DNA from: Mycobacteriales bacterium
GTDB taxonomy: Bacteria; Actinomycetota; Actinomycetes; Mycobacteriales; SCTD01
Assembly: GCA_030447385.1 (NCBI GenBank)
Contig: JAUJOY010000002.1
Coordinates: forward strand, 99,392-163,391
DNA: 64,000 bases
Direction of reading: 5' to 3'
The notes under the pieces were generated by a model that was not told the origin of the DNA, did not search any database, and saw only the letters and a program-made list of their open reading frames with translations. Below, piece after piece: positions 8,056 through 35,631 of this stretch. The position numbers were made by a program, and so were the translations under genes. Each line of letters begins with the position of its first letter. Positions within the stretch are counted from its first letter, which is position 1.

Positions 8056-8820
8056 CTAGCGGGAGCTCGCGACGACGCCGAACTGCTCGGCCAGCTCGTT
8101 CACCGCGCGGACGTACTCCTTGGCCCCTGGCCAGTCCACGACCGGAACCCGGGCGCGGTCCGCCGCCCCGACCTCGTCGCTCCACGGGACCACCCCCGCG
8201 ATGGTGAGGTCGTGCCGGTCGCAGAACTCCCGGATCGCCTGCTCGTCCGCCGCCGACCGCACCTTGTTGGCCACGACGGCCACCCGCGCCACCGGAAGCT
8301 CGCTGATCAGCGCGTTCATGCGCCGCAGCGTCTCGAGCGAGCGGTAGTAGGGCTCGGCCACCAGGCAGATCGCATCGACGTGGCGCACCGTGCCACGGCT
8401 CAGGTGCTCGGGGGAGGCCTCCATGTCGACCACGACGAAGCGCTCGGGCGCCCCGAGGTCCTCGAGCAGGGAGGAGACCACCGCGTGGGCCGAGCACAGG
8501 CAGCCCTCGTTGGCGTGCGCCGGGGAGCCCATGCCGAGCAGGCGCACGCCGTCAGGCGCCCGGAGGGAGAACCGGTCCAGGACGTCGTCGATCGGCTCAG
8601 TCAGGCCTGCTCCCCCGACCTTCCGCGACACCAGCGTCGAGGGCACCGGACCCAGCTGCGCCGAGGCCTCGAGCGGCATGCCGAGCGCGACCGACAGGTT
8701 GGGGTTCGCGTCGGCATCGAGGGCGACCACGCCGAGTCCCGACCGGGCAGCCAGGCGGGCGAGCGTGGCGCTGAGGGTGGTCTTGCCCGCCCCGCCCTTG
8801 CCGGCGATGGCGAGCCTCAA
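8056..8820 (-). CDS. CooC-like nickel-insertion ATPase (paralog 1)
   Basis: TTG start overlaps the padR stop. GKGGAGKTT, DADANPNL, GCLCSAH (CxC), DMEASPEHLSRGT. Confidence 0.85.
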   Translation of the reverse strand: MRLAIAGKGGAGKTTLSATLARLAARSGLGVVALDADANPNLSVALGMPLEASAQLGPVPSTLVSRKVGGAGLTEPIDDVLDRFSLRAPDGVRLLGMGSPAHANEGCLCSAHAVVSSLLEDLGAPERFVVVDMEASPEHLSRGTVRHVDAICLVAEPYYRSLETLRRMNALISELPVARVAVVANKVRSAADEQAIREFCDRHDLTIAGVVPWSDEVGAADRARVPVVDWPGAKEYVRAVNELAEQFGVVASSR

Positions 8821-9185
8821 CGCACGGCCTCCGCGGCGCCGACGACCTGCTGGTAGCGGCGGCGGTAGGTCGTGAGCGAGCGCGCGACCTCGGCCAGGGA
8901 GCCGGCGACGACATGCAGCCACTCACGACCCTCGTCGGTCAGCTCATAGGTGCGACGAGCCGGGCCGGAGGTGGACGGCTCCCACGTCGAGCGGACCAGC
9001 CCCTCGCTGTCCATCGCGCGAAGGCACCGGTAGAGGCCACCCGGGTCGACGTGGTCGAAGCCGAGCGCGGCGACCTGCTCGAGCAGCTCGTAGCCGTGGG
9101 AGGTGCCCTCGGCCAGCACCAGGAGCAGGCACGGCCGCAGGTAGTTGCGGGGAAGGTCGACGAGGGCGCTCTCCGGGGCGGTCAT
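8817..9185 (-). CDS. PadR-family transcriptional regulator
   Basis: HGYEL, GGLYRCLRAM..EGLV, GPARRTYELTDEG. Confidence 0.9.
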   Translation of the reverse strand: MTAPESALVDLPRNYLRPCLLLVLAEGTSHGYELLEQVAALGFDHVDPGGLYRCLRAMDSEGLVRSTWEPSTSGPARRTYELTDEGREWLHVVAGSLAEVARSLTTYRRRYQQVVGAAEAVR

Positions 9186-9559
9186 CCCTTGTGCCTCTCT
9201 GCTGCGCACGCGGCGGCTTCCTCGAGCGAGTTCTGGCACCAGCAGTCGGCGCTGCACTCGCCGTGGGTGGGACGGGTGAGGTCGGCGAAGCTGAGAGCGA
9301 ACTCGGTCTTGCCCTCCGCGAGTCCGATCTCCGACATCGCGTAGCCGCCCCGGGCCATGTCGAGATAGCCGTCCAGCACGAGGCGGTCGAGGTAGGTGAC
9401 CCCGACGGCGGCGTCGACACCGAGGAACCGCTCCAGCAGCGGGGCGTCGACGACGTCCCCGAGCCCCTCGCCCTTCAGCCAGTACATGACCTGGAGGATC
9501 TCGCTGCGCCAGTACAGATCGCGCAGCGCCTCGGACTTGGGTGGATGGAGCTGCTCCAT
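9182..9559 (-). CDS. Hypothetical hydrogenase-linked protein with a Cys-rich C-terminus
   Basis: ATG at 9559 with RBS-like GAAGG. 125 aa ending HGECSADCWC...AAC. Stop overlaps the padR start. Confidence 0.7.
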   Translation of the reverse strand: MEQLHPPKSEALRDLYWRSEILQVMYWLKGEGLGDVVDAPLLERFLGVDAAVGVTYLDRLVLDGYLDMARGGYAMSEIGLAEGKTEFALSFADLTRPTHGECSADCWCQNSLEEAAACAAERHKG

Positions 9560-9866
9560 GTTCGCGCCTTCTTGTCGTCGGTGCAGGGACGGTGGGCTGA
9601 GAGCGGCCTGTGCCTGACCCGCCTCAGCCTGCGCGGTCCCTGCGGTGTGCTCGTCCGGATCGGGAACCCGTGGTCGGTCCACGCCCCACAGGCGAAGGCT
9701 ACCCCGGTGGAGGCGTCTGTGGCGGTCCGGCCGCCGGCGCGCACGTGTGTCCAGTGACGGATCGGGGCAGTGCCGCGGCGAGGGCCGTAGCCAGAATCGC
9801 GCGAACCCCATAACCTCCAGAAGCGGAACAAACCGAGGCCCCCGTGGGGTGCGCTACAAGGCCCAA

Positions 9867-9887
9867 CTATGTGTATGGTGCATCTAC
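9867..9887. promoter_or_regulatory. Candidate operator/promoter upstream of the hydrogenase genes (CTATGTGTA-TGG-TGCATCTAC)
   Basis: Matches the 4386 motif and contains a TATGGT -10-like hexamer. Confidence 0.45.
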
Positions 9888-9936
9888 GACCAGCTGTGAC
9901 CGACCGCACACTCGTCCTGACCCGTAGGAGCGACAG

Positions 9937-11349
9937 ATGATCGACTACCACAACCAGCACCGGGACCTCATTCCGGGCAGCCCCGCTCAGAAGCTGCTCG
10001 AGGGTCTCGGCCGTGCGGTGGGCTTCCACGACCTCGACCACATCGGCGCCTTCGGGATGCCGACCGGGGCCTACATGGAGGACATGCTGGCCCCGGCTGC
10101 CATCGCGACCGCGGCTACCCGGTTCGGTCCGCTGGAGAAGGTGCACGCCTTCTGGTTCGCGGGGGCGAGCTGCGACGGCTGCAGCGTCGCCGCCACGGGC
10201 GCGACCAACCCGACCGTCGAGAGCATGATGCTCGGTGCCCACCCCGGCATTCCGCGGGTCATCCTGCACCACCCCGTCATCAACATGGAGTCCGGCGCCC
10301 ACTACATGCGGGCGGCCGAGCAGGCGATGGAGGGCACCCTCAACGCGCCCTACGTGGTCATCCTTGAGGGCTCGATCATGGACGAGCTGCTCGCCTTCGA
10401 CCAGGGCGGCTACTGGTCCGCCGCCGGCGAGGAGCCGTGGGGCAAGGGCGGCGAGCTGCGCCCGGTCAGCACGACCGAGTGGGTGGCCCGGCTGTCCATC
10501 AACGCCGCCGCGATGGTCGCCATCGGCACCTGCGCGACGTGGGGCGGCATCCCGTCGGCGGAGGGCAACCCCACCGGCGCCATGAGCCTCATGGACTTCC
10601 TCGGCAAGGACTACCGCTCGGTCCTCGGTGTACCGATCGTCAACATCCCGGGCTGCCCGCCCATCGGGGACAACTTCACCGAGACGATCGCGGCGGTCTG
10701 CTACTTCCTCCAGGGCTTCGGCCCCCTCCCCGAGTTCGATGAGCTCGGCCGGCCGGCCTGGCTGTTCGGCGAGACTGTCCACCGTCGCTGCGTGCGTGGC
10801 GCCTACTACGAGGAAGGCCAGTTCGCCCACGAGTTCGGCGACCCGGAGTGCCTCGTGGAGCTCGGCTGCTGGGGCCCCGTCGTCAACTGCAACATCACCT
10901 CACGCGGCGCCGTCCGCGGCATCGGTGGCTGCATGAACGCCGGCGCGGCCTGCATCGGCTGCACGATGCCCGGCTTCCCGGACAAGTTCACCCCCTTCTA
11001 CAAGCGTCCCCCCGGCTCCCTGGCGTCGACGACGGTCTCCCGGATGACCGGCAGCCTGATCCGCCCGCTGCGCAAGTTCAGCAACAACAACCTCAACCGC
11101 GAGGTGCGCTGGGACAAGACCGGCGAGGTCACGTCCGGGTTCGGTCGCGAGAAGTCCGACCCCGGCATGCTGGCTGAGGTGACCCACCACTTCTACGACA
11201 AGATGCGCCGCTTCAACGACAACGCGACCAACGACGGCGCGGCCTGGGGCAAGATCGGCGACGACGGCGGCGACGGTCGCCACCCCGAGCAGGCGCGTGG
11301 TTTCAAGTCCGGCGAGAGCTCGAAGAAGGCCATGCCAGGACGTCGCTAG
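9937..11349 (+). CDS. [NiFe]-hydrogenase small subunit (group 1h/1l-like)
   Basis: SCDGCS, EGSI, GTCA.WGG, PGCPP, HRRC, ECLVELGCWGPVVNCN, GGCMNAGAACIGC. RBS AGGAG. No twin-arginine signal. Confidence 0.93.
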   Translation: MIDYHNQHRDLIPGSPAQKLLEGLGRAVGFHDLDHIGAFGMPTGAYMEDMLAPAAIATAATRFGPLEKVHAFWFAGASCDGCSVAATGATNPTVESMMLGAHPGIPRVILHHPVINMESGAHYMRAAEQAMEGTLNAPYVVILEGSIMDELLAFDQGGYWSAAGEEPWGKGGELRPVSTTEWVARLSINAAAMVAIGTCATWGGIPSAEGNPTGAMSLMDFLGKDYRSVLGVPIVNIPGCPPIGDNFTETIAAVCYFLQGFGPLPEFDELGRPAWLFGETVHRRCVRGAYYEEGQFAHEFGDPECLVELGCWGPVVNCNITSRGAVRGIGGCMNAGAACIGCTMPGFPDKFTPFYKRPPGSLASTTVSRMTGSLIRPLRKFSNNNLNREVRWDKTGEVTSGFGREKSDPGMLAEVTHHFYDKMRRFNDNATNDGAAWGKIGDDGGDGRHPEQARGFKSGESSKKAMPGRR

Positions 11350-11433: not shown

Positions 11434-13335
11434 ATGTGCTTCAAGACCCTGCCGGTCTCGTTCGACGGTCGCGGCAACGCGACGTTGCGGGGCGGCGCCA
11501 ACCCGTACGGCTACACCAACTCCACCCCCAACCACGTCGAGGTGACGGAGACCGAGCGCGAGGAGCGCATCAAGCGGCTGGTCGCGCGCAACGGGCACAT
11601 CAAGGACCTCAACATGGACCCGATCACCCGCATCGCGGGTGCTCTGGCGCTCCACGTCCAGGCAGACCTGGACAACGGTGAGTACCTCGACGCCCACGCG
11701 CAGGCCACGCTCTTCCGCGGCTACGAGCTCATCCTCATGGGCCGCGACCCGCGCGATGCCATCTTCGTGTCCTCGCGGGCCTGCGGCGTGTGCGGTGGCG
11801 TGCACGCGCACTGCGCCGCCTACGCCATCGAGATGGCGATGGGGATCAAGCCGCCGCCGCTCGGCACGGTGGTGCGCAACATGGAGCAGGCCGCCGAGAT
11901 GGGCTACGACAACCCGCTGCACCTCTACCTGCTGGCCGGACCGGACTACTCGGAGTCGGTCATCAAGGCGTCCAACCCGGAGCTGTGGCCGCTGGCGGAG
12001 TCGTGGCCGTGCCCCAACGCGCACATCCACGGCTTCAAGAAGATGTCCGACCTGATGGTCGCGCTCAACCCGCTGACCGGTTCGCTCTACCGCGAGGGCC
12101 TGGACTTCACCCGCCTGTCCCGCGAGATCGTCGTCATCCTCACCGGCAAGTACCCCCACCCGCAGAACGTCGTGCCCGGTGGGGTCTCGACGACGCTCAC
12201 GCTGCAGACGCTCAACGAGTTCCACTCCAAGCTGGGTCGCATCTTCGACTACGCCCAGCGGATGATGGCCGTCTGGGACGACATCCCGGCCTTCTTCTAC
12301 GAGGCCGACGAGCGCTACATGCAGGTCGGCTCGCGTCCGATGACCATGATCGACGCCGGCTACTGGGACGACCCGTACGCCTACGACGGCACCTACGAGA
12401 ACTGCAACGAGTGGGGCGACAAGCGCTGGTCGACTCCCGGAGCGGTCATCGACGGCAAGCTGGTGACGACCCGCCTCACCGACATCAACATCGGGCTCGA
12501 GGAGTTCGTCGAGCACGCCTACTACGAGCCCTCGCACACCACGCGCCACGCGACCGACCCGCTGGGCAACCCGCTCTCGCCCTGGCACCCGTGGAACAAG
12601 CGGACGCTGCCCAAGCCCGGCGCCCGGGACTGGAAGGACAAGTACACCTGGTCCACCTCCGTACGGTGGGACCGGCGCGCGGTCGAGGCAGGCTGCTACG
12701 CGCGCATGATCATCAACGCCCAGTCCAGGAAGATCCCGACCAGCGACTTCATCGAGTCCACCGGCCACAGCGTGCGCATGCTCGTCCCCAAGGGCGAGGT
12801 CGGCGAGCGGGAGGTCGAGTGGCACATGCCGGACGTGTGGAACGCCTTCGAGCGCAACCGCGCCCGCGCGCACCACTACCTCTACAGCCAGCTGGTCGGG
12901 CTCGAGAGCCTCTTCGAGGCCTACAAGCTCTTCCAGCAGGGTGAGCGCCAGGTTGCGAGCCTGACCCCGGAGGAGCTGGAGAAGGCGATCCCGCAGGACA
13001 ACCGCCTGGGTGTCGGCTTCTGGGGCGCCGGCCGCGGCTGGCTGGTGCACCACCTGGAGATGGACAAGGGCAAGCTCACCAACTACCAGATCACGACGCC
13101 CTCGACGCTCAACGCGTCGCCGCGCGACCCGTGGGGCAACCCTGGTCCCTACGAGGAAGCCGTCATGAACACGCCGATGATCGAGGACCTCTCCAACCCG
13201 GAGAGCTTCACGAGCATCGACATGATGCGCGCCATCCGCAGCTTCGACCCGTGCATGCCGTGCACCACGCACGCCTACACCGGCGACGGCGAGATCGTGC
13301 GTGAGGTCAACACGTGCTCGTGCGGCGGTGACTGA
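11434..13335 (+). CDS. [NiFe]-hydrogenase large subunit (group 1h/1l-like)
   Basis: L1 motif SRACGVCGGVH, L2 motif SFDPCMPCTTH, DPITRI, GAGRGWLVH. Confidence 0.95.
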   Translation: MCFKTLPVSFDGRGNATLRGGANPYGYTNSTPNHVEVTETEREERIKRLVARNGHIKDLNMDPITRIAGALALHVQADLDNGEYLDAHAQATLFRGYELILMGRDPRDAIFVSSRACGVCGGVHAHCAAYAIEMAMGIKPPPLGTVVRNMEQAAEMGYDNPLHLYLLAGPDYSESVIKASNPELWPLAESWPCPNAHIHGFKKMSDLMVALNPLTGSLYREGLDFTRLSREIVVILTGKYPHPQNVVPGGVSTTLTLQTLNEFHSKLGRIFDYAQRMMAVWDDIPAFFYEADERYMQVGSRPMTMIDAGYWDDPYAYDGTYENCNEWGDKRWSTPGAVIDGKLVTTRLTDINIGLEEFVEHAYYEPSHTTRHATDPLGNPLSPWHPWNKRTLPKPGARDWKDKYTWSTSVRWDRRAVEAGCYARMIINAQSRKIPTSDFIESTGHSVRMLVPKGEVGEREVEWHMPDVWNAFERNRARAHHYLYSQLVGLESLFEAYKLFQQGERQVASLTPEELEKAIPQDNRLGVGFWGAGRGWLVHHLEMDKGKLTNYQITTPSTLNASPRDPWGNPGPYEEAVMNTPMIEDLSNPESFTSIDMMRAIRSFDPCMPCTTHAYTGDGEIVREVNTCSCGGD

Positions 13336-14107
13336 CGCCGCAGGCGGACGCGTCTCTGTCTTCGTCGGCGGCGTCAGCGAGCTCTACCAGTCCGACCTCG
13401 ACGTCGGGCGGTACGTGGTCGAGCGGTTGCTGACGGAGGACCTCGGTCCTGGTGTCGTCGTGGAGGACCTCTACTACGGCGCCATCATGGTCGCGCAGCG
13501 GTTGGAGGACCTGCGGCCGGCGTCGCTCATCCTGGTGAGCGGCGTCGTCCGTGGGCGTCCGCCCGGCACGGTGCAGCGCCGCTATCTCGAGGTGACCGAG
13601 CAGAGCCCGGCCGAAGCGCAGGGCGCGGTGGGTGATGCCGTCACCGGCTACGTCCACCCCGACCTGGTCGTGGAGATCGCCGCGGCGCTGAAGTGCCTTC
13701 CGGCGCGTTCCATCGCCATCGAGGTCGAGCCGGAGGTGTCCACGACCGGTGACGGACTCAGCCCGTCCGTCGCCGAGGCACTCGACGTCGCGCTCGACAT
13801 GGTCCGCACGGAGGTGCGGCGTGCGCCACTGCTCGCGCTCGCGGACGAGCTTCGGCCCCTGCTCGAGGGCGACCGGCTGGAGGAGTCCGCTCCGACGGCC
13901 GCTGCCCGCGAGCTGCTGGACGAGCTGGGGCTCTTGGAGCGGGAAGGCCGGTGGGGGCGCACGTTCGCCCTCAAGGACCGGCTGCAGCTCGGCATCGCCG
14001 GCAGTGACAGCAGCGAGGGGATGAGCCACCTCGACTGGGCGCTGTGGTGGACGCTCATCGAAGAGGTGGCCCGGCTCGAGGTCGTGGAGAGCTCGTACAA
14101 GCGCTGA
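13328..14107 (+). CDS. Divergent hydrogenase maturation protease-like protein with a C-terminal extension
   Basis: GGVSELYQSDLDVG resembles the HybD GxGN..xDDGxG motif; GRPPGTV; GLSPSVAEAL. Overlaps the large-subunit stop. Confidence 0.7.
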   Translation: MTDAAGGRVSVFVGGVSELYQSDLDVGRYVVERLLTEDLGPGVVVEDLYYGAIMVAQRLEDLRPASLILVSGVVRGRPPGTVQRRYLEVTEQSPAEAQGAVGDAVTGYVHPDLVVEIAAALKCLPARSIAIEVEPEVSTTGDGLSPSVAEALDVALDMVRTEVRRAPLLALADELRPLLEGDRLEESAPTAAARELLDELGLLEREGRWGRTFALKDRLQLGIAGSDSSEGMSHLDWALWWTLIEEVARLEVVESSYKR

Positions 14108-14139
14108 GCGACATGCACGGAGCCGTCTGATCGCGGCCG

Positions 14140-14205: not shown

Positions 14206-15027
14206 CTACGTCGTCGACTTGCCGAAGAGCTCGGCGGGTGGGGTTATCTCGCCCGCGGGCTTGTCCAGGTAGCCGAGGTTGTGCGGTGGGATGGCCACGC
14301 GGTTGCCTTTCGGGGTCAGCAGCACCAGGGCCCCGTCCGCGAGCACGTCGACCCCCTCACCGGTCACCTCTGGACCGCCGACTCCGCCGGCCCCCATCGG
14401 GATCAGGAAGGCCCGGTGGCTGCGCCGCAGGGTGGTGCAGCGGGCGAGGTAGTCCGACAGCACCTGGCCGGGCGGCGCGTCGACGCGCTTCTCCAGCGCG
14501 TCGCAGAGCCGGGCCAGCAGCTCGGGCCGGGGGGAGTCGGGGCGCTCGATCAGCACGGTCACGCTCAGCCACTCGGTACGCGAGGGACCGAGCTCGACGT
14601 AGACCCCGACCCGGGCCCGGACCTCTCCGTTCGGGTCGCGCACCTCGTCCGGCCACTCCAGGCCGCCACCGGGCGTCCCCACGACGTCGTGCAGCGCGAG
14701 CAGGCAGGAGACGTAGGGCCATCCCTCCCGCTCCGGAGCCAGGACTGGCCGCAGGAGCAGGGTGAACCCGAGGTCGCGTCCCTGCTGGACGATCCAGGGC
14801 AGGCCGCCACGTCCTCGCGGGGACGCCTGGTAGTCGGCGACGACGACGGCGCCCTCAGGCGCGCCTTCGCGGGCCCAGGCATGAGCCACCGCCTCGGTGG
14901 AGAGCAGGGCAGGATAGGTGCGGAACGGGCGGTCGCCCAGCGCCGCGGCGAGGCTCGCCTCGCTCAGGTCGCTCTGGCTCCCCTCACTTCCGGTCGCGGC
15001 TCCCGCAGCCTGATCGTTGCCGGTCAT
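14206..15027 (-). CDS. Biotin-protein-ligase (BirA)-like protein with a degenerate active site
   Basis: ST....A.AWAREGAPEGAVVVADYQASPRGRGG.PW, EWPDEV, C-terminal DVLADGALVL. ATG overlaps the TPR gene stop. Confidence 0.7.
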   Translation of the reverse strand: MTGNDQAAGAATGSEGSQSDLSEASLAAALGDRPFRTYPALLSTEAVAHAWAREGAPEGAVVVADYQASPRGRGGLPWIVQQGRDLGFTLLLRPVLAPEREGWPYVSCLLALHDVVGTPGGGLEWPDEVRDPNGEVRARVGVYVELGPSRTEWLSVTVLIERPDSPRPELLARLCDALEKRVDAPPGQVLSDYLARCTTLRRSHRAFLIPMGAGGVGGPEVTGEGVDVLADGALVLLTPKGNRVAIPPHNLGYLDKPAGEITPPAELFGKSTT

Positions 15028-16256
15028 CTCCACCCACCTTCCAGACCCGCGGCTTCGGCCGCGGTGTTGAGGCTGGCCGCCAGCCGTTGCCACTGCGGGA
15101 TGGCGAACCGTGCCATCGCCGAGCCGAAGACCGCGCGCAGCCGTTCCGCTTCGGCCTCCGGGCGGCCGGCGGCCGCCTGGACGAACGACGCCATCACCAT
15201 CTCGTAGCTGCGCGGCGGCAGCTCCAGCACGACGTTGAGCAGGTGCTCGGCGAGGTCGTAGGCGATGCTGGGCCGGCCCAGCACGCCGTCGAGGAACCAC
15301 CGGACCACCTCGGTCCGGCCGGCGGCCGGGAGCTCGAGGGCGCGCAGCAGCTCGGAGCGGATCACCCCGTCCCACTGGTCCTTGTCGTCCTCCGAGTCGA
15401 GCACGGTCATGAGGTCGTCGGCCACTCGCCCGGGCAGCCGGTCGAGGACCTCCTGCGACTGGGCGCGCACCGGCGGCGCCGCACTCGGGATCGCCAGCGC
15501 CTGGCCGGCGGCCAGGCGCGCCCGGGGCGCGTCACCGGTCTGCTCGTAGGCCAGGGCGAGGTTGGCCTTGACCATGGCGTGCTCGGCAGGGCGCAGCGTG
15601 CGCGGGAACGCCGCGAGGGCACGCTGCAGCGCGAGCACGGCCTCCGCCGGCTTCTCGGCGGCCAGCAGGGCCAGGCCCAGCGCGTTGCCTGCGGCGCCGG
15701 TGTTGGCGCTGTCCGTCGCCTTCTCCGCCAGCTCCAACGCCTGCGCCAGCAGCCGAACTGCGGCCTCCACGTCGCCCTCGGTGAGCAGCGAGGCCCCGGC
15801 CTCGCGGGCCGCTGCAGAGGCCTGGGAGGGAAAGCCCGCCTTCACGAAGAGCTCGCGGGCGCGGTCCCAGGCCTCCCGAGCGCCCTTCAGGTCCCCGGTG
15901 TCCTGCAGGACCAGCCCGAGGTTGAACGAGGCCGCCGCCTGCTCCGCCGGCTGGTCGAGGGTCGCGAGCTCCTCATACGCCGTGGAGAAGGCCTCCTTGG
16001 CCTTCTCGCGCTGCCCCGCCGTGCGCAGGGCGGCCCCCAGCATGACGCTGGTCTTCGCGTGCTCGAGCGTCATCCCGGCCTTGCCGAAGACCTCGCGCGC
16101 CGTGGTCAGCGACGTCAGGGCCTTGCGGGTCTCGCCGGTCTGCAGCTGCATCGTCCCGAGGTGGAACTGCGTCGTCGCGTGCTGCACCGGGTAGCGGTCG
16201 ACCGGGTAGCGGCCGAGCTTCGCGATGAGGTCTTGCGCCGAATCGGCCACGAGCAC
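15024..16256 (-). CDS. Tetratricopeptide-repeat protein
   Basis: Repeated helical units (FHLG, FNLGLV, NALGLA, ANLALA). RBS-like GGAAAGG before GTG. Confidence 0.8.
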   Translation of the reverse strand: MLVADSAQDLIAKLGRYPVDRYPVQHATTQFHLGTMQLQTGETRKALTSLTTAREVFGKAGMTLEHAKTSVMLGAALRTAGQREKAKEAFSTAYEELATLDQPAEQAAASFNLGLVLQDTGDLKGAREAWDRARELFVKAGFPSQASAAAREAGASLLTEGDVEAAVRLLAQALELAEKATDSANTGAAGNALGLALLAAEKPAEAVLALQRALAAFPRTLRPAEHAMVKANLALAYEQTGDAPRARLAAGQALAIPSAAPPVRAQSQEVLDRLPGRVADDLMTVLDSEDDKDQWDGVIRSELLRALELPAAGRTEVVRWFLDGVLGRPSIAYDLAEHLLNVVLELPPRSYEMVMASFVQAAAGRPEAEAERLRAVFGSAMARFAIPQWQRLAASLNTAAEAAGLEGGWR

Positions 16257-16269
16257 CTACCCTTTCCCT

Positions 16270-16770
16270 ATGAATGCTGTGGTGGCGTGCTTCGGCAACG
16301 TGCTCAAGGCCGACGACGGCGTCGGTCCCGCTGTGGCGCACGCTCTGCACGAGGAGGGGCTGCCCGACGGCGTCCGCGTGATGGAGGTCGGCATCGGTGG
16401 CATCCACCTGCTGCAGGAGCTGATGCGCGCACCCGCGGACGTGCTGCTGATCGTGGACGCCGTCGACCTCGGCCGCCCCGCCGGCAGCGTCGTGGTGCAG
16501 CGTCCCGAGGTGCTCGACGTCAACAAGCTCCCGGTGCACCAGCGGCGCGACCAGCTCTGCGACATGCACCTGGCCACGCCGGCGAAGACCATGACGTTCG
16601 CGCTGGGCATGGGCGTCCTGCCGCCGACGACACTGGTCGTCGGGGTGCAGACGACCGACACCTCCGAGCCGCGGGTGGGGCTGTCGGAGGTGACGGCGCG
16701 GACGGTGCCCGTCGTCGTGAGCGAGGTGCTGCGCCTGCTGGCCCAGCACGCCCCCGCCCCCCTGCCCTGA
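16270..16770 (+). CDS. Hydrogenase maturation endopeptidase (HybD/HupD family)
   Basis: CFGNVLKADDGVG, LIVDAVD, DMH.A.P, GLSEV. Confidence 0.88.
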   Translation: MNAVVACFGNVLKADDGVGPAVAHALHEEGLPDGVRVMEVGIGGIHLLQELMRAPADVLLIVDAVDLGRPAGSVVVQRPEVLDVNKLPVHQRRDQLCDMHLATPAKTMTFALGMGVLPPTTLVVGVQTTDTSEPRVGLSEVTARTVPVVVSEVLRLLAQHAPAPLP

Positions 16771-16803: not shown

Positions 16804-17400
16804 TCAGTCCGGCGGGCGGGTCGTGATCTGGAGCAGCACGGTGCTGCCCGAGGGCGGTGCGTGCGCCGCCGCCCCGTCGTCGGGCGCGACGTCCATGGAC
16901 ACGAAACCGGGCAGGTTCTCCCGCAGCGCCTCCTCGACGCCGTGCCGGAGCGTCTCACCGGCCGACGTGCACCCCGAGCAGGCGCCGACGAGGCGTACGC
17001 GCACCACGCCGTGCTCCACACCCAGCACCTCGACCTCACCGCCGTGCTCGTGCAGGTAGGGCCGGATCTGCTCGAGCGCGTCGTTGGCCGCCTCGGGGTC
17101 GTTGACCCCCACGCCGTAGGCCTCGAAGAGCCAGTCGATCGCCGGGTCGGACCGGCGGAGGGCTTCCAAGTCGAGCCCAGGGGAGTCGGCGAGCCTGGTG
17201 ACCGCCAGCCGGTGCACGGCGTCGACGCCGTCGAGCAGCTCGAAGACCCGGTTGCGCACGTCCTCGTCCAGGCCCTCGATGTCGCCCAGCAGCTCCTCGA
17301 GCCGGTCGAGCAGCGGCCCCATCGCGGCCAGTGAGGCGTCCGCGAGCTGCTCAGGGGACCTCGCCTCAGGCTCGGTCTCTGCCTCGGACTTCACGGTCAT
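16804..17400 (-). CDS. NifU/NfuA-like Fe-S protein
   Basis: IRPYLHEHGGEVEV...GACSGC NifU C-terminal motif. ATG at 17400 with RBS AGGAG. Confidence 0.85.
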   Translation of the reverse strand: MTVKSEAETEPEARSPEQLADASLAAMGPLLDRLEELLGDIEGLDEDVRNRVFELLDGVDAVHRLAVTRLADSPGLDLEALRRSDPAIDWLFEAYGVGVNDPEAANDALEQIRPYLHEHGGEVEVLGVEHGVVRVRLVGACSGCTSAGETLRHGVEEALRENLPGFVSMDVAPDDGAAAHAPPSGSTVLLQITTRPPD

Positions 17401-17720
17401 CTGTGTGCTCCTGTGGGGGGGTCGTCGTGCAGGTGATGCGCGGGCGGCTGTGCGGAGGTGGAGCGGAGAGGCGACGTCCCGCAGCGAGATCTCCGAGACG
17501 TCGCAGACGCCGGTCAGGTCACCGTTGCCGGGGCAGTGCACCGTGCCCCAGAATGTCCTGAGCGTAGCGCGCACAGCCCGAGGAGGCCGGTTACCGTAGT
17601 GGCCGAGCACCGTCACGAGCGGCGCCAGCAGCAGCAACCCGAGGGCCGTCCGACCCGGAGGACGACAACTTCACCAGCTTCCTGCTGCTCGAGGTCTGCG
17701 TGCCACGAGTGTCACCTGCA

Positions 17721-18554: not shown

Positions 18555-18564
18555 GCGGGCCGGG

Positions 18565-21301: not shown

Positions 21302-21338
21302 GCCGTGACTGTAGGCCGGAAGCGCACGAGCCGTCTCG

Positions 21339-21359
21339 CTAGAGTCGCCACACATCTAC
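21339..21359. promoter_or_regulatory. Candidate operator CTAGAGTCG-CCA-CACATCTAC in the divergent cooC/hypC promoter region
   Basis: Right half matches the 9867 motif; a TACACT -10-like hexamer lies about 10 bp downstream. Confidence 0.4.
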
Positions 21360-27430: not shown

Positions 27431-27431
27431 G

Positions 27432-28241
27432 CTAGGGAAGCCGAACGCTGAGCAGGGTGACGTCGTCGTTCTTCAGGCGGCCGCTGGCCCGCTCGCCCGC
27501 GATCCACTCGGCGAAGCCCTGCTGGGAGAGCCCGTCGGTGAGTGCACGCCAGAGCAGCCACGGCTGGGTGCCCTGCTCGTCCTGCGTCAGGAACCAGGCA
27601 GCCAGGGCGTCGGTGCACAGGAAGAACTGGTCACCGCTGAGGAAGGTGCCGGAGGCGTACGCGCGGTGCTTGTCGAGCAGGCGCCGGCTGCGCAGCCCCG
27701 TGTGGACCAGTGCGGGGGAGCTGTCGAACTGTGCGGCGTGCGAGAGCGGGAACGCCTGCTTCATGCCGTTGTCAGTCACGTGGAACAGGCAGCTGTCGCC
27801 GACTGCCTCCGCCGTCCACGTGCCGGAGAAGCCCGACGGGTCCAGCCGGAACTCCGCGACCAACAGCGTCGCGTGCGCCCCGCGGTCGAGCCCGGGCTCC
27901 TCGTACCAGGCGATCGGCTTGTCGGCCTTCTCGCGCTCTGCCTTGTAGTCTCCGACGATCTGCGGCCAGGCGGCCTGGGCCCGCCGGACGCACCTGCGCA
28001 GCTGGGGCTGGGCCATGGACGTGTAGGTGTGCACGAGCGCCGAAGCCCAGTGCCCGGACAGCATGCTCTCCGTCGCCCCGTCGGCGACGGCTACCCGCAG
28101 CCGCCGTCCCTCGGAGGTCAGCGACCAGAAGCCCTCGGTTCCGGGGTCGCTGATGGAGAAGGCGTCTTCGTACTCGCGCGACTCGGAGCCGTTCTTCTGG
28201 CACCAGTACGCGTGCGCATCCCCTCGCATGGGCTTCGCCAC
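27432..28241 (-). CDS. PP2C-like protein phosphatase
   Basis: EYEDA, AVADGA, VGDS, CTDAL, NDDVT. Confidence 0.85.
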   Translation of the reverse strand: MAKPMRGDAHAYWCQKNGSESREYEDAFSISDPGTEGFWSLTSEGRRLRVAVADGATESMLSGHWASALVHTYTSMAQPQLRRCVRRAQAAWPQIVGDYKAEREKADKPIAWYEEPGLDRGAHATLLVAEFRLDPSGFSGTWTAEAVGDSCLFHVTDNGMKQAFPLSHAAQFDSSPALVHTGLRSRRLLDKHRAYASGTFLSGDQFFLCTDALAAWFLTQDEQGTQPWLLWRALTDGLSQQGFAEWIAGERASGRLKNDDVTLLSVRLP

Positions 28242-28247
28242 CCGGTC

Positions 28248-29084
28248 TCAGCGAAGGTCGGAGGCGCGGGTGCCGATGTCGAGGAACTGCACGATCGAGC
28301 TCACGTCGGCGTTGTAGACGAAGCCCCGGGTGCCCTCGCCCGTGGACAGGCCCTGGGCCCTGGCGTAGTTCTTCATGTGCTCGGGCAGGGGTGAGGAGAT
28401 CCCGAACAGCATCTTGGAGAAGCTGTCGGGCAGCTGGGTGTCGTTGTCCGGGAACGTCGCGGGAGTGCCTCCCGCGCCTGAGACGTGCAGGTTGAACAGC
28501 AGCGCGTTGCCGTCGGTCGAGAGCAGCGACATGATGCCGCGGGTCACCTCGGTCGGGTCACCGTCCGTGCTCTCCCCGTCGGTGAGGTGGAGCACGACCG
28601 GGGGGAAGCTCGAGGGGTGCTGCTCGACCCACTGCTCGACGAGGTGCCGGGCCTTGCTCAGCGCCTGGTTCATCGGGGTCCCGCCGTCCGACACCGGGTC
28701 GAGCCAGACGGGGAACTTCACAGTCTGCTCGACGAGGCCACCGGCGCCGTCGGGGGTCTTCTTCGTGCGCTCCTCGAGGCGAGCGGGCGAGCTGGCGATC
28801 TCGCTGAGCGGAACCATGTCGCGCCCTGCCAGGGGACCGGCGAACGCGCTGCCCACGGTTGCCCCGTAGCCGATCACCGCGACGTGGAAGTAGTCGCGGA
28901 CGCCTTCCTCCTTGGCGCACTTGAGGGTCAGCTCGTAGAGGAGCCGGTTCATCGCGTCGGAGACGACCTGCGACTTGCGCTGGACGAACTCACCGCCGAT
29001 CTGGTCCTCCATGCTCGTGGACTGGTCCACCACGAACACGAAGCACGCTGGGTTGGCTCTGCTGATCTCTGCGGTGTACGGCAC
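28248..29084 (-). CDS. vWA-domain protein (TerY-like)
   Basis: MIDAS motif DQSTSM, GGTPM, LTDGESTDGDP. Confidence 0.88.
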   Translation of the reverse strand: MPYTAEISRANPACFVFVVDQSTSMEDQIGGEFVQRKSQVVSDAMNRLLYELTLKCAKEEGVRDYFHVAVIGYGATVGSAFAGPLAGRDMVPLSEIASSPARLEERTKKTPDGAGGLVEQTVKFPVWLDPVSDGGTPMNQALSKARHLVEQWVEQHPSSFPPVVLHLTDGESTDGDPTEVTRGIMSLLSTDGNALLFNLHVSGAGGTPATFPDNDTQLPDSFSKMLFGISSPLPEHMKNYARAQGLSTGEGTRGFVYNADVSSIVQFLDIGTRASDLR

Positions 29085-29309
29085 AGGGTCCTTCTCCCGG
29101 GGTGGCTGGCGAACGTGGGCACGTCGGTGCGGGGGCGGTTCTGCGCTGGTGCGAACCTTGACAGGATCCGCCCGGATCGTCCACCGGTGGCGCAGCCTGC
29201 GGTGACCCCGAGTTCTACCGCGGGTCGAGGGTTACCGGCAGGTACGGGCGCTGCTGCCGGGGCGGATCCGCCACCTGCTCGAGGGAGCTGACCTGCCGCT
29301 TGTGCGATG

Positions 29310-29324
29310 TACCCTAGTGGGGTA
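29310..29324. promoter_or_regulatory. CsoR-type operator TACCC-N5-GGGTA
   Basis: Inverted repeat about 40 bp upstream of csoR, overlapping a TATAGT -10-like hexamer. Confidence 0.75.
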
Positions 29325-29363
29325 TAGTTCCTGGTAGAGCCGATCAGCGGAGAGGCGGAGCGC

Positions 29364-29645
29364 ATGCCAGGTTATGCGAGCAACAAGGACGACCAGCTCA
29401 AGCGGCTGCGTCGCGTGGAGGGGCAGGTCCGGGGCATCGCCAAGATGGTGGAGGACGACAAGTACTGCATCGACGTGCTGACCCAGGTCTCGGCGGCCAC
29501 CAAGGCGCTGCAGTCCTTCGCCCTGGGGCTGCTCGACGAGCACATGGCGCACTGCGTCGTCGACGCCGCGCGCGCCGGCGGCCCCGAGCAGGACCTCAAG
29601 CTGAAGGAGGCGTCCGAGGCGATCGCCCGCCTCGTGCGCAGCTAG
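29364..29645 (+). CDS. csoR: Copper-sensing repressor CsoR
   Basis: RLRRVEGQVRGI, YCIDVL.Q, HMAHCV. Confidence 0.92.
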   Translation: MPGYASNKDDQLKRLRRVEGQVRGIAKMVEDDKYCIDVLTQVSAATKALQSFALGLLDEHMAHCVVDAARAGGPEQDLKLKEASEAIARLVRS

Positions 29646-29713
29646 TACCGAGCCACCCCCGAGCACCACCTTCCAGACCGGCACCGTCGAGAGCCCACAC
29701 GAGGAGTTCTTCC

Positions 29714-29941
29714 ATGAGCACCGCCACCTACAACGTCGTCGGCATGACCTGCGGCCACTGCGTCGCCTCCGTGAAAGAGGAGGTCACGGCGCTTCCGGGC
29801 GTCGCCGACGTCCAGGTCGAGCTCGAGAGCGGGCAGCTGACGGTCACCGGCGACGCCGCTTCCGACGCCGACGCCGTGCGCAGGGCGGTCGAGGACGCTG
29901 GCTACCTGCTCATGCCCGACGACGACTCCCCGCCGGCGTAG
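29714..29941 (+). CDS. copZ: Copper chaperone CopZ
   Basis: GMTCGHC HMA motif, EDAGY. Confidence 0.9.
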   Translation: MSTATYNVVGMTCGHCVASVKEEVTALPGVADVQVELESGQLTVTGDAASDADAVRRAVEDAGYLLMPDDDSPPA

Positions 29942-29998
29942 CCGCAGTTCGCCTCGTCACTGCGGACGCCCACCCCCTTTCCTGCACGAGGAGCAGTC

Positions 29999-30927
29999 AT
30001 GAGCACACCTACCCGGCTCGCGGCCTTTGCCGCCGGGCTGGCAGTCACCTTCGTCGCGGCCGTCGGCGTCGGAAACGCGGTCGGCCCGGTGGGCGCCGCC
30101 GCCGAAGCCGTGCACGGCGGCGGGCACACGGGGGCAGCCCCGCAGGCGCACGGTGGCGAGCACGCCGCGGCGGGGAGCGCAGCGGCTCCCGCGGCCGGTG
30201 CGGCCCCCGTTCCCGGGCTCGCGGTGTCCGCCGAGGGCTACACGCTGCGCCTGGCGTCGGGGACGCATCCGCTGGCCACGCCCGCCCCCTTCGCCTTCTC
30301 CGTGCTGGGCCCCGCCGGACGGCCGGTCACCGCCTACACGCCGACCCACGACAAGGACCTGCACCTGATCGTCGTGCGCCGCGACACCACCGGCTTCCAG
30401 CACCTGCACCCCGAGCGGGACGCCGACGGCGGGTGGACGACCCCGCTCCTGCTCGACCGGGCGGGGACCTACAAGGTCTTCGTCGACTTCGCTCCTGACC
30501 GGCGCACGGACGCCGTGACGCTGGCCGCGGACGTGTCCGTGCCGGGGACCTACGAGCCCGAACCGCTGCCGGCTGTCTCGCCTGCCGCGTCGGTCGAGGA
30601 CTACGTGGTCACGCTGACCGGCGACCTGGTCGCCGGCCGGGAGAGCGCGCTGACGCTGTCGGTCACGCGCGGCGGCCGCCCGGTCGACGACCTGCAGCCC
30701 TACCTCGCGGCCTACGGGCATCTCGTCGCGCTGCGGGTGGGGGACCTCGCCTACCTGCACGTCCATCCCGAGGGCGAGCCGGGGAACGGGCGCACGCCTG
30801 CCGGACCCGACATCCCATTCGTCGTGGACGTGCCCACCGCCGGTGACTACCGGCTCTACCTGAACTTCCAGCACGAGGGTTCGGTCCGCACCGCGGAGTT
30901 CACAGCTGTGGCACAGGAGGAGACATC

Positions 30928-30931
<4 letters not shown>
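29999..30931 (+). CDS. Secreted His-rich heavy-metal-associated protein
   Basis: Signal peptide; [25 protein letters not shown]; located inside the cop operon. Confidence 0.75.
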
Positions 30932-33309
<2,378 letters not shown>

Positions 33310-33327
33310 GCCGATGATCGTGGCCTC

Positions 33328-35631
33328 ATGACCGCCACCGCAGGACCTGGCCGCACCCGCGTGCGCGTTTGCGTGTCGGGGCTGGTCCAGGGGGTGGGGT
33401 TCCGGCCCTTCGTCTGGCGTGAGGCGACGGCGCGCGGGCTGGCGGGCTGGGTGGGCAACAACGCCTCCGGCGTGATCCTCGAGGTGGAGGGGACGGCTGA
33501 GCAGGTGGACGGGCTGCTCGCCGCCCTGCACCGCCCCCCGCCGCTGGCGCGGGTCGACGAGGTCCGCAGCGAGCCGCTCCCGGCGACGGGAGAGCATGGC
33601 TTCGAGGTCCGCATCAGCGCCACGGCCGGCGCCCGCCGGGCCCTCGTCTCCGCGGACACCGCCACCTGCGACGAGTGCATCCGCGAGCTGCACGACCCGC
33701 TGGACCGGCGCTTCCGCTACCCGTTCATCAACTGCACCTCCTGCGGCCCGCGCTACACGATCGTGCAGTCGGTGCCGTACGACCGCTCGCGCACGACGAT
33801 GGCGCCCTTCCAGCTGTGCGGCGCCTGCCAGGCGGAGTACGACGACCCGGCCGACCGCCGGTTCCACGCCGAGCCCGTGTGCTGTCCCGCCTGCGGTCCG
33901 CGCCTGCGCCTCGTCGAGCGGCCGGGGCAGAACCCGGCCGGGGAGGCCGACCCGATCGAGCGCTGCGTGGAGCTGCTGCGCACAGGCGCGATCGTCGGCG
34001 TCAAGGGGCTGGGGGGATACCACCTCGCCGTGGACGCAGGAGACGAACAGGCCGTCGCTGCCCTGCGGGGGCGAAAGCACCGCGAGGACCGGCCCTTCGC
34101 ACTCATGGTGGCCGGCCTGGATGCGGCTCGCGAGCTCTGCGAGGTGGGACCGAAGGAGCAGGAGCTGCTGCTCAGCCCGGCTCGCCCCATCGTCGTCCTG
34201 ACCCGCCGGACGGGGGACCTGGTCGCGCCGTCCGTGGCTCCCGGGTCGTCGTCGCTCGGCGTGATGCTCCCGTACACGCCTCTGCACCTGCTGCTGCTCG
34301 AGTCCTTCGGCGGCCCGCTGGTGCTGACCAGCGGCAACCGGTCCGACGAGCCCATCGCCTTCCAGGACGACGATGCTGCCGGACGCCTGTCCGGCATCGC
34401 GGACGCCTTCCTCGTGCACGACCGGGCGATCCACACCAGGGTGGACGACTCAGTGAGCAAGGTCGTCCGGGGCCGGGTCGTTCCGCTGCGCCGCTCACGC
34501 GGCTACGTGCCGCGTCCGGTGCTCCTCCCGCAGGAGGCGCCGGCACCGGTCCTCGCCTGCGGGTCGGCCCTGAAGAACACCTTCTGCCTCGGGCGCGGCC
34601 GGCACGCGTTCCTGTCCCACCATGTGGGCGACCTCGACGAGTTCTCCACCCTGCAGTCCTACCGCGCGGGGATCTCCCACCTGACCCGGTTGCTCGACGT
34701 CGACCCGAAGGTGCTCGCGCACGACCTGCATCCGGACTACCCCTCCACCCGGTACGCCATGGACCGCGCCGAGGGGGACGGCGAGATCGAGCTGGTTGGC
34801 GTGCAGCACCACCACGCCCACATCGCCTCGTGCCTGGCCGACAACGGCGTCGTGGGGCCGGTGATCGGGGTCGCCTTCGACGGCCTGGGCCTCGGCACGG
34901 ACGGCACCGCCTGGGGCGGGGAGTTCCTGCTCGCCGACCTGACCGGCTTCTCCCGGGCAGCGGCGCTCGGCGACGTGGTGATGCCCGGGGGTGACGCGGC
35001 GGCCAGGCAGCCGTGGCGCATGGCGGCTGCGCACCTCGACGCCGCCTACGGGGGGGAGATCCCCGCGGGTCTGGGCGTCGCCCAGCGGCAGGGCCGCAGG
35101 TGGGAGCAGGTGCTGTCGGTCGCGAGGTCGGGCGTGAACGCCCCGCTCACCTCCAGCGCCGGCCGGCTGTTCGACGCCGTCTCCGCCCTGCTCGGCCTGC
35201 GCGACGTCGTCACCTACGAGGGCCAGGCCCCCATCGAGCTCGAGCAGGCAGCCGATCCCGCGGAGACCGGCAGCTATGCGGTGCCCGTCACCGGCGGGAC
35301 TCCCGCGCGGGTGGAGGTGGGGGCCCTCGTCCGCGCGGTCGTGGAGGACCAGGCCGCAGGCACCGGCGTCCCGGTCCTGGCGGCCCGCTTCCACAACACG
35401 CTCGCCGACACCGTCCTGGACGTCTGCGCGCGGCTGCGCGAGAGCTCGGGGCTCTCGACGGTCGCCCTGTCGGGCGGTGTCTTCCAGAACTCCCTTCTGC
35501 TCACGCGCTGCCTCGAGCGGCTGGAGGGCAGCGGCTTCCAGGTGCTGACCCATCGCGAGGTGCCGCCCAACGACGGCGGCGTCAGCCTGGGCCAGGCCGC
35601 CGTCGCCGCGGCGCTGCTGCACAGGCGCTGA
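33328..35631 (+). CDS. hypF: Carbamoyltransferase HypF
   Basis: VQGVGFRPFV, two Zn fingers (CDEC..CTSC, CGAC..CPAC), KGLGGYH, QHHHAH, PNDGG. Confidence 0.97.
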   Translation: MTATAGPGRTRVRVCVSGLVQGVGFRPFVWREATARGLAGWVGNNASGVILEVEGTAEQVDGLLAALHRPPPLARVDEVRSEPLPATGEHGFEVRISATAGARRALVSADTATCDECIRELHDPLDRRFRYPFINCTSCGPRYTIVQSVPYDRSRTTMAPFQLCGACQAEYDDPADRRFHAEPVCCPACGPRLRLVERPGQNPAGEADPIERCVELLRTGAIVGVKGLGGYHLAVDAGDEQAVAALRGRKHREDRPFALMVAGLDAARELCEVGPKEQELLLSPARPIVVLTRRTGDLVAPSVAPGSSSLGVMLPYTPLHLLLLESFGGPLVLTSGNRSDEPIAFQDDDAAGRLSGIADAFLVHDRAIHTRVDDSVSKVVRGRVVPLRRSRGYVPRPVLLPQEAPAPVLACGSALKNTFCLGRGRHAFLSHHVGDLDEFSTLQSYRAGISHLTRLLDVDPKVLAHDLHPDYPSTRYAMDRAEGDGEIELVGVQHHHAHIASCLADNGVVGPVIGVAFDGLGLGTDGTAWGGEFLLADLTGFSRAAALGDVVMPGGDAAARQPWRMAAAHLDAAYGGEIPAGLGVAQRQGRRWEQVLSVARSGVNAPLTSSAGRLFDAVSALLGLRDVVTYEGQAPIELEQAADPAETGSYAVPVTGGTPARVEVGALVRAVVEDQAAGTGVPVLAARFHNTLADTVLDVCARLRESSGLSTVALSGGVFQNSLLLTRCLERLEGSGFQVLTHREVPPNDGGVSLGQAAVAAALLHRR

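Follow-up and report, generated by a model that had tools for sequence, protein, structure and literature searches.

Gene content of the locus

We analyzed a window of 64,000 nucleotides (C1:99392-163391) from the genome of a soil actinobacterium of the order Mycobacteriales (G000), in which genes for a [NiFe]-hydrogenase and its maturation proteins stand together with four genes for ATPases similar to the nickel-insertion factor CooC. The cluster points to a route of nickel insertion into hydrogenase that may so far have gone undescribed. The assembly comprises 3.41 Mb in 13 contigs and is 100% complete by marker genes, with a contamination of 1.33%. As the DNA of the window is 72% G+C, genes were called by codon-position G+C bias; they were named via Pfam and NCBIfam. 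The genes of the cluster lie between 8 kb and 36 kb of the window and include hydS and hydL, hypC, hypD, hypE, hypF, two protease-like genes and the four CooC-like genes.

The small subunit of the hydrogenase is encoded at 9937-11349 on the forward strand (Pfam NiFe_hyd_SSU_C and Oxidored_q6) and the large subunit, which we call type A, at 11434-13335 on the same strand (Pfam NiFeSe_Hases). Among PDB entries, the large subunit is matched best by 5aa5_C, a group 1h enzyme (E 1.2e-134). Its L1 (RACGVCGGVH) and L2 (DPCMPCTTH) motifs are intact, with all four Ni-Fe cysteines in place, and the protein carries a 20-residue C-terminal extension, AYTGDGEIVREVNTCSCGGD (13273-13332, forward strand), with a C-x-C at its end. 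With these motifs and this extension the enzyme would require both nickel insertion and proteolytic processing.

All genes for the assembly of the Fe(CN)2CO group are on the forward strand. HypC (21410-21727) has the canonical N-terminus MCLGIPGQ and was found by tblastn with a relative's HypC (E 2.7e-19). HypD lies at 23066-24247 (TIGR00075, 7.5e-149), HypE at 24340-25335 with an approximate start (TIGR02124, 1.1e-124, matching residues 132-463 of the open reading frame 23944-25335) and the carbamoyltransferase HypF at 33328-35631 (TIGR00143, 3.4e-228). A maturation endopeptidase of the HupD/HycI type is encoded at 16225-16770 on the forward strand and scores over the cut-off (TIGR00072, 2.2e-26). 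A second, weaker hydrogenase-protease-like protein (13301-14107, forward strand; TIGR00072, 4.8e-9) is under the cut-off; its gene is kept in synteny and stands immediately 3′ of hydL in every cluster of the synteny comparison. The Fe(CN)2CO branch (HypC, HypD, HypE, HypF) is thus complete in the window and a protease is present, as an earlier note made from the sequence of the stretch had stated; Pfam, NCBIfam and, for HypC, tblastn bore it out.

Four CooC-type ATPases

The CooC-like genes are numbered here in the order of their coordinates: CooC1 at 8056-8922 (reverse strand; Pfam CbiA), CooC2 at 17766-18554 (forward strand), CooC3 at 19812-20546 (reverse strand; 244 codons, a predicted selenoprotein) and CooC4 at 20543-21355 (reverse strand). 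The earlier note had counted four CooC-like ATPases among the hydrogenase genes. The four paralogs are real and all have the same best structural match, but what had been taken for the third gene was only the 3′ part of 19812-20546, and the selenoprotein nature of this paralog had been missed.

The deviant Walker A motif GKGGxGK[TS] of MinD/CooC-type dimeric ATPases is present in all four proteins. By phmmer, the closest solved structure for each of them is CooC1 of Carboxydothermus hydrogenoformans (3kje), with E-values of 1.8e-26 (CooC1), 1.1e-22 (CooC2), 2.8e-11 (CooC3) and 1.6e-11 (CooC4). The Mrp/MinD-type HypB of Thermococcus (3vx3) was matched with E 7.3e-4 by CooC1 and 5.6e-6 by CooC4, and was not listed at E<=0.001 for CooC2 or CooC3. 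No model reached its cut-off in the NCBIfam scan of the paralogs.

The proteins differ at the position of the metal site. CooC1 and CooC2 hold a C-x-C that aligns with the metal site of 3kje, CooC3 has C-x-U-C and CooC4 is without a ligand. In CooC1 the Walker A motif reads GKGGAGKT and the metal motif EGCLCSAH; the C-x-C is found in 6 of 7 orthologs, the seventh having TGA at the first Cys. The 5′ end of this reading frame overlaps padR, and the true start is probably near codon 33. The CooC1-type ortholog of locus L096 (263 region), in a cluster with the published layout of group 1l hydrogenases, has TGA at the first Cys (U-L-C). The metal motif of CooC2 is AGCTCSGH, with G-C-T-C in 29 of 30 orthologs and GCWC in the remaining one. 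CooC3 has G-C-P-U-C-G, where U is an in-frame TGA, and the phmmer alignment places its C104-P105-U106 on C112-Y113-C114 of the C. hydrogenoformans protein. The Walker A motif of CooC4 is intact and kept in 39 of 40 orthologs, while neither the window gene nor any of its orthologs (40/40) has a Cys at the metal site. By its gene arrangement CooC4 is translationally coupled to CooC3: the stop codon of the former overlaps the start codon of the latter (ATGA). In 41 of the 46 public ortholog loci, CooC4 is the gene immediately upstream of CooC3.

CooC3 as a predicted selenoprotein

The TGA codon of CooC3 (20229-20231, reverse strand) aligns with Cys114 of C. hydrogenoformans CooC1. Twelve nucleotides past it lies a SECIS-like hairpin with a 7-bp stem and G-U in its apical loop, CCUGAGC-AGUU-GCUCGGG (20199-20216, reverse strand). 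The complete machinery for selenocysteine (Sec) was found in the genome, namely a tRNA-Sec whose anticodon is UCA, SelA, SelB and SelD. Translated by the standard code, the frame falls into two parts with 105 and 131 codons, so that the TGA might be read as a nonsense mutation and the gene as a pseudogene split in two. We give this reading practically no chance, and it was rejected on the conserved stop site, the match of TAG to CUA anticodons described below, the covarying hairpin and the Sec machinery. Both halves keep the frame and the coding signature, and the gene is not broken; it is a predicted selenoprotein gene, with Sec on the second Cys of the CxC motif. A search for sequencing runs listed 20 of DNA metagenomes and none of RNA.

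Conservation of the stop site was followed in two sets of genomes. Among 41 related genomes sampled, 8 have a CooC3 ortholog (61-100% identity), and all 8 have a single TGA at the same codon. A scan with one genome per species gave 66 loci, 46 of them orthologs at >52% identity. Together, the 46 public and 8 related sequences make 54 rows, two of which duplicate contigs. The codon at the site is TGA in 44 rows, TAG in 4 and Cys in 6, so that a stop codon occupies it in 48 of 54 rows, down to 52% identity. In 8 of the 44 TGA rows (L075-L079, L081, L093, L097) the first Cys codon is also TGA, which gives the form U-x-U-C.

TAG is the codon in Geodermatophilus chilensis, Modestobacter sp. DSM 44400, Blastococcus saxobsidens DSM 44509 and a metagenome-assembled genome (MAG) (L058, L059, L060, L062; L117-L120). 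In all four genomes the anticodon of tRNA-Sec is CUA, with Rfam matches of 65-67 bits, above the cut-off. ARAGORN labels these molecules tRNA-Pyl because of the CUA anticodon only. Natural recoding of Sec is known from the work of Mukai et al. (2016), as covered in a review (PMC10778597). As TAG occurs in exactly those genomes whose tRNA-Sec reads UAG, the Sec codon appears to follow the anticodon of tRNA-Sec, a match that argues against a nonsense mutation. The 2016 Angew Chem report of Mukai and colleagues is said to name Geodermatophilus and Blastococcus.

Both conservation and covariation are seen in the hairpin. In 44 distinct rows of Sec forms, 97.7% of the cells are paired; one position shows a compensatory C-G/G-C swap in 12 rows, and another pair varies between U-G, C-G and U-A. 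The covariation score was reached by none of 500 shuffles, and slid controls pair at 21-47%. Coding constraint on the peptide P-E-Q-L-L-G also adds to the conservation of the hairpin. The AGUU loop, which includes a rare TTG codon, is kept in 47 of 48 Sec forms, compared with only 2 of the 6 forms with Cys. Support for the CooC3 clade is 100/99 in a maximum-likelihood tree, where Sec forms of Chloroflexota and Dormiibacterota branch off deepest and the well-supported branches require the Cys forms to have originated 3 or more times. Sec therefore looks ancestral in the CooC3 clade.

The type A hydrogenase

The relatives hold two types of hydrogenase, type A as in the window and type B, a group-1h-type enzyme, which are 38-42% identical to each other, the window protein standing at about 39% to type B. 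In a sample of 301 genomes of the class, the identity of large subunits to the window protein is bimodal: 5 genomes fall at 74-100% and 60 at 35-43%, one genome having both. The window large subunit and that of L096/G350 agree in 54-56% of their residues and have the same N- and C-termini. According to Ortiz et al. (10.1101/2020.08.06.239558), group 1l enzymes (HylSL) are <40% identical to group 1h, are modelled on 5AA5 and have five short transmembrane genes between hylS and hylL; their hosts are desert-soil Actinomycetota, Chloroflexota, Bacteroidota and Dormiibacterota, and the group is described there as the prevailing H2-scavenging enzyme family of the Antarctic soils studied.

L096 has this published layout, with exactly five single-helix open reading frames between hydS and hydL. 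As type A shows the same <40%-type split from group 1h and its L096 homologue has the five-gene layout, we call it group-1l-like, an assignment made by identity and by the L096 layout. Type A shares with group 1l the <40% identity to the group 1h type, 5AA5 as the best template and the occurrence in these desert-soil phyla. The window differs in the absence of the five transmembrane genes: hydS is followed at once by hydL, and a HylTM homologue was looked for there and not found. Our best reading is that the enzyme is an oxygen-tolerant, group-1l-like uptake [NiFe]-hydrogenase.

The tail of the large subunit ends in REVN[TS]C[SAG]C in the window (…REVNTCSCGGD) and in all 13 type A orthologs compared, and its C-x-C is missing in 3 of 3 type B large subunits. 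The tail motif is of the same kind as that which CooC uses for holding metal. In the relative G002, SelA directly adjoins the gene for the type B small subunit (C33; L046:15020-16600).

HypA and HypB in the genome and across phyla

As the earlier note had reported no HypA or HypB in the window and no gene for CooS or AcsB, we examined the whole genome by six-frame family searches, each of which gave matches in its control genomes. No match was obtained in G000 for HypA (PF01155), for Prismane/CooS (PF03063) or for CdhC/AcsB (PF03598), and none for HypB (TIGR00073) at E<=0.001, so that not even a UreG-like relative was seen in the genome. A tblastn search of G000 with a relative's HypA gave a best E of 0.22, and HypA and HypB had no match among the scanned open reading frames of the window. 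The absences noted for the window thus extend to the whole genome, and hypAB elsewhere together with a cooS, which would have accounted for the CooC-like genes otherwise, were looked for and neither was found.

We then profiled HypA and the CooC set against the hydrogenase type over genomes of five phyla. The 18 genomes with type A only (G000, G003, G005, G008, G021, G050, G079, G177, G041, G043, G343-G347, G348, G350, G352) span four phyla and include two cultured isolates. HypA was found in 0 of the 18, the cultured Geodermatophilus chilensis and Blastococcus saxobsidens DSM 44509 among them. All 5 genomes with both types (G002, G030, G075, G042, G349) have HypA, in each case at a distance of 2-5 kb from the large subunit of type B, and in the class sample it is present in 59 of 60 type B genomes. 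A CooC-like match at E<=1e-15 occurs in 10 of the 301 class-sample genomes, 7 of which hold CooC3 orthologs; the type-B-only genomes, 59 in number, have none, and among the 237 genomes without either type 3 show such a match beyond the ortholog set. Nine unpublished genomes enter these counts (G021, G030, G044, G050, G075, G079, G344, G346, G349). Without unpublished genomes HypA is present in 0 of 13 type-A-only and 2 of 2 both-type genomes, and in 56 of 57 type B genomes of the class sample after dropping G058, G067 and G304 (unpublished) and G075. HypA travels cleanly with the group-1h-type enzyme and the CooC set with type A.

HypA and HypB might exist in G000 and have been missed, either as proteins too divergent for PF01155 and TIGR00073 or in unassembled sequence. 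HypA is short, the assembly is in 13 contigs and many of the related genomes are incomplete MAGs. Against this stand the 100% completeness of G000, the tblastn result and the ability of the same search to find HypA in nearly every type B genome and in no type-A-only genome. An oversight of this kind is very improbable.

HypB is less informative. In the class sample 31 type B genomes out of 60 gave no match, none of the 31 having a CooC-like gene, and in the family-level sample HypB scored above the cut-off only in G035. As these type B genomes without HypB are also without CooC, absence of HypB on its own gives no reason to expect a substitute, and the informative contrast is that between HypA and the CooC set. 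HypA is present in 30 of the 31 type B genomes without HypB, HypB being scored by cut-off. One HypB match above the cut-off, in G068 (C257:849-1460), has an in-frame TAG.

Linkage of the CooC set to the hydrogenase genes

By synteny the four paralogs are four ortholog groups that stand beside the type A cluster in G003, G002, G018 and G030, with 55-83% identity to their own orthologs and 28-45% to each other. The genes that accompany them are type A hydSL, the protease-like gene and those for the TPR protein, HupD, the NifU-domain protein, HypC, the SIS protein, HypD, HypE and HypF. The linkage is also seen in public genomes of Geodermatophilus, Modestobacter, Blastococcus, Nocardioidaceae, Acidimicrobiales, Chloroflexota and Dormiibacterota; in total, 25 of the 46 public CooC3 ortholog loci have hydrogenase or hyp genes in the fetched stretch. 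The suggestion of the earlier note that CooC-type ATPases may replace or supplement HypA and HypB is supported, at the level of sequence comparison, by this conserved linkage and by the profile of HypA against the CooC set, both of which the note had proposed to follow in relatives.

A number of observations weigh against a role of the CooC set in nickel insertion into type A. The fetched stretch of 21 of the 46 CooC3 ortholog loci has no hydrogenase or hyp gene, and 7 of these 21 loci (14-21 kb each) neighbour genes for BNR beta-propeller, EAL, MerR, P-type ATPase or ABC transporter proteins. G079 has type A, and CooC3 was not found in it (85% complete); G066, G081 and G139 have CooC3, and a type A large subunit was not found in them (72-85% complete). 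In G018 (96% complete) the contig that holds the CooC/hyp cluster breaks off before hydSL, and no large subunit of this genome scores above the Pfam cut-off. In L053 the CooC genes adjoin a type B enzyme and a HypA-like gene. G000 itself holds further CooC-like paralogs in settings unrelated to hydrogenase, so that the CooC-like family is not restricted to hydrogenases. The CooC-less type B genomes without HypB described above belong here as well, as does the fold of CooC3. Its AlphaFold2 model (18-row alignment) has a pLDDT of 87.5 and a fold of the MinD/ParA/NifH/CooC type; in a Foldseek search 3kje ranks 7 by E-value, with a TM score of 0.73 and 24% identity, and the fold fails to separate CooC from MinD, FleN or NifH. 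Finally, sites of the CxC type in related ATPases might bind Zn or an Fe-S cluster in place of Ni.

The loci away from hydrogenase genes raise the question whether the CooC-like proteins, or at least the pair of CooC4 and CooC3, act on something other than hydrogenase, such as general metal homeostasis or another client, and have reached the cluster by hitch-hiking. In Acidimicrobiales-type loci the pair has BNR beta-propeller, EAL, MerR and P-type ATPase genes as neighbours in place of hydrogenase genes; in G000 a paralogous pair lies by BNR_2, MFS, DM13 and DUF305 genes, and other paralogs by FtsH-like and hydrolase genes. Yet in 5 of 5 genomes with a CooC4-CooC3 pair away from hydrogenase genes a type A large subunit is encoded elsewhere, and HypA was found in 0 of these 5. 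The four CooC groups also stay with hyd and hyp genes down to 55% identity, and CooC-like genes beyond the ortholog set are rare or missing in genomes without type A (0/59 type-B-only; 3/237 without either type). We therefore consider a target outside hydrogenase quite unlikely.

The fold and the possible ligands of the CxC sites bear on a different alternative, in which the CooC-like ATPases serve the type A hydrogenase with another cargo, such as an Fe-S cluster for the small subunit or for the NifU-domain protein, zinc or iron, and nickel enters unaided or via a still undescribed factor. Relatives of the Mrp/NBP35/ApbC type handle Fe-S clusters, the SIMIBI fold is common to Fe-S carriers and NifH, with fold scores that equal those of CooC1, and the NifU-domain protein is part of the conserved cluster. 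Group-1h-type genomes without HypB and without CooC exist as well, so that nickel insertion with fewer helpers seems possible in the class. By sequence, however, all four paralogs are nearer to CooC1 of C. hydrogenoformans than to Mrp/NBP35 entries, and their metal motif is a C-x-C at the position of CooC, not the C-x-x-C that is the motif of Mrp/NBP35. The CooC set, moreover, is exclusive with HypA, a nickel chaperone, and not with any Fe-S factor. We judge a cargo other than nickel to be unlikely on this evidence, though less so than a target outside hydrogenase.

Additional CooC-like genes of G000 and related genomes

The further copies in G000 are of several kinds. The gene at C1:620436-621179 (L042:8437-9210) is CooC-like with TGA at the first Cys (G-U-T-G-S-A-H) and lies by FtsH-like, Hydrolase_4 and Rieske/DUF2231 genes; a Cys-bearing CooC-like copy with the same neighbours is found at C3:184442. 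The CooC4-like/CooC3-like pair beside BNR_2, MFS, DM13 and DUF305 genes is located at C1:635623-637307 (L043:3623-5307). Near a contig end, at C3:198600-200000 (L045:600-2000), a CooC-like pair with a C-V-C-C motif reads as frameshifted or broken. CooC4/CooC3-like pairs by BNR_2 beta-propeller and MFS genes also occur in the Acidimicrobiales-type genomes of L076, L079 and L081. In G013 more distant CooC-like genes are present and no hydrogenase was found.

Other genes of the cluster and its surroundings

Upstream of hydS, a PadR-family regulator (8817-9257, reverse strand; Pfam PadR, 2.8e-18) adjoins CooC1, as it does in the syntenic clusters of relatives. Between padR and hydS lies a conserved protein without a family name (9182-9811, reverse strand; start uncertain), which has no match in Pfam or NCBIfam and is 57-81% identical to counterparts in G003, G002 and G030. 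A TPR-repeat protein (15024-16256, reverse strand; Pfam TPR families) and a NifU-domain protein (16804-17637, reverse strand; Pfam NifU, 4.3e-22) are conserved in the cluster by synteny. An MFS transporter (18565-19677, reverse strand; Pfam MFS_1 and MFS_3) lies downstream of CooC3; it is mostly not kept at this site in relatives, and none is found between CooC3 and CooC2 in G003 and G002.

Next to hypC, a 244-residue protein (21724-22458, forward strand) has a C-terminal HupF/HypC-like domain that scores 26.4 bits with Pfam HupF_HypC, the cut-off being 28.5. The protein is conserved over its full length in relatives, its last ~60 residues being HupF/HypC-like (PVCITCSDEG…), and a homologue of this domain is a free-standing 75-residue protein in type B clusters. 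It is followed by a SIS-domain (GmhA-like) protein (22221-23111, forward strand; Pfam SIS_2, 1.6e-18) with a true start probably near 22536. The stretch between hypE and hypF (25367-33309) holds a trio of kinase-like, PP2C-like and VWA genes and a copper block of CsoR, CopZ, a protein without a name and CopA. The copper genes (29364-33309) and the kinase/PP2C/VWA genes (25367-29084) were considered as parts of the system and rejected; they are not between hypE and hypF in G003, G002 and G018.

Directly upstream of CooC1 is an ABC importer of the Nik/Opp2 type, with a binding protein and two permeases (4492-7977, forward strand). Its best NCBIfam names are NikA (185 bits, under the cut-off), Opp2B/NikB (347.7, with a cut-off of 350) and NikC/Opp2C (309.7, above the cut-off of 300). 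The ATPase of the importer may be the fused gene 2548-4389 in the preceding operon. Seen beside the cluster in this window, the importer is a possible nickel supply for it.

A possible route of nickel insertion

We infer nickel insertion by the CooC proteins from homology and co-occurrence. On balance the data tip slightly toward a reading in which, with HypA and HypB absent, the nickel step of type A maturation is performed by four co-inherited CooC-type SIMIBI ATPases. These proteins would bind Ni(II) at the Cys/Sec sites of their dimer interfaces, and ATP-driven cycling of the dimers would release it to the large-subunit precursor. CooC4 and CooC3 may form a heterodimer with a single, one-sided Cys/Sec metal site. 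The type-specific C-x-C at the end of the precursor tail could be a docking or hand-over site, and HupD would cut off the C-terminal extension after nickel has been handed over. As a ligand, selenocysteine would be more nucleophilic and more readily re-reduced, which would suit an aerobe.

A bolder version of this proposal is possible, and we put it forward only tentatively. In it, a selenium-dependent machine made up of CooC1 and CooC2 dimers and the CooC4-CooC3(Sec) heterodimer would have fully replaced HypA and HypB in group-1l-type enzymes, nickel being passed via the Cys/Sec C-x-C sites to the C-x-C of the tail.

To our knowledge, the maturation of [NiFe]-hydrogenases is taken to involve nickel insertion by HypA and HypB universally. 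Judged by the genomes compared here, a whole hydrogenase lineage appears to do without the two proteins and to use CooC-type ATPases instead. In term-level searches of main texts, neither a part for CooC-type proteins in the maturation of [NiFe]-hydrogenases nor a CooC with Sec came up in any paper. A 2025 review (PMC12134894) does not contain the terms CooC, MinD, Mrp or SlyD, and the main text of a 2026 review of prokaryotic selenoproteomes does not name a CooC-type family, which its supplementary tables could list. The passages on group 1l in Ortiz et al. and a term search of a 2026 paper gave no mention of CooC-type genes or of a lack of HypA. The present analysis adds the whole-genome tests of absence, the profile of HypA against CooC over five phyla, the covariation of TAG and CUA, the U-x-U forms and the C-x-C of the tail. 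If confirmed, the route would change the annotation, heterologous expression and engineering of type A enzymes. It would also bring in a family of selenoproteins whose genes are split in two by gene callers, and would link selenium to the assembly of nickel enzymes. Should the bolder, selenium-dependent version hold, the scavenging of trace-gas H2 by many desert-soil bacteria would hinge on the supply of selenium.

Comparison with known systems

Proteins of the CooC/AcsF family insert nickel into Ni,Fe-CO dehydrogenase and acetyl-CoA synthase in an ATP-dependent manner, and in CooC1 of C. hydrogenoformans (3kje, 3kjg-3kji) the C-x-C at the dimer interface (C112/C114) binds Ni or Zn. The window paralogs resemble them in the deviant Walker A, the size of ~250 residues and the MinD-type fold, and three of the four have the C-x-C (or C-x-U) at the metal site. 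They differ in that the client genes cooS and acsB were not found in G000 and the window genes are linked to a [NiFe]-hydrogenase. Their identity to C. hydrogenoformans CooC1 is also low, and there are four specialized paralogs, one without metal ligands and one with selenocysteine.

The job proposed here is that of HypA and HypB, which bring Ni to the large-subunit precursor after insertion of Fe(CN)2CO and before C-terminal cleavage; HypB is also an NTPase of the SIMIBI class. In G000, however, there is neither a HypA Zn-finger protein nor a G3E GTPase matching HypB, and HypA goes with type B in relatives. A precedent for a MinD-type ATPase in place of the GTPase HypB is the Mrp/MinD-type HypB of Thermococcus kodakarensis (3vx3, 5aun-5auq), which replaces it in nickel insertion into hydrogenase and works with HypA. 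The sequence similarity of the window paralogs to this protein is weak (7.3e-4 and 5.6e-6, vs. 1e-11 to 1e-26 for 3kje), and its HypA partner was not found in G000.

Sec serves as a ligand in nickel chemistry. With known bacterial selenoproteins, such as the large subunit of [NiFeSe]-hydrogenase and formate dehydrogenase, CooC3 has in common the in-frame UGA, a hairpin 11-12 nt downstream and the existence of Cys orthologs. In those proteins Sec is part of the catalytic subunit, whereas here it is predicted in an accessory ATPase, some orthologs of which would carry two Sec residues (U-x-U-C).

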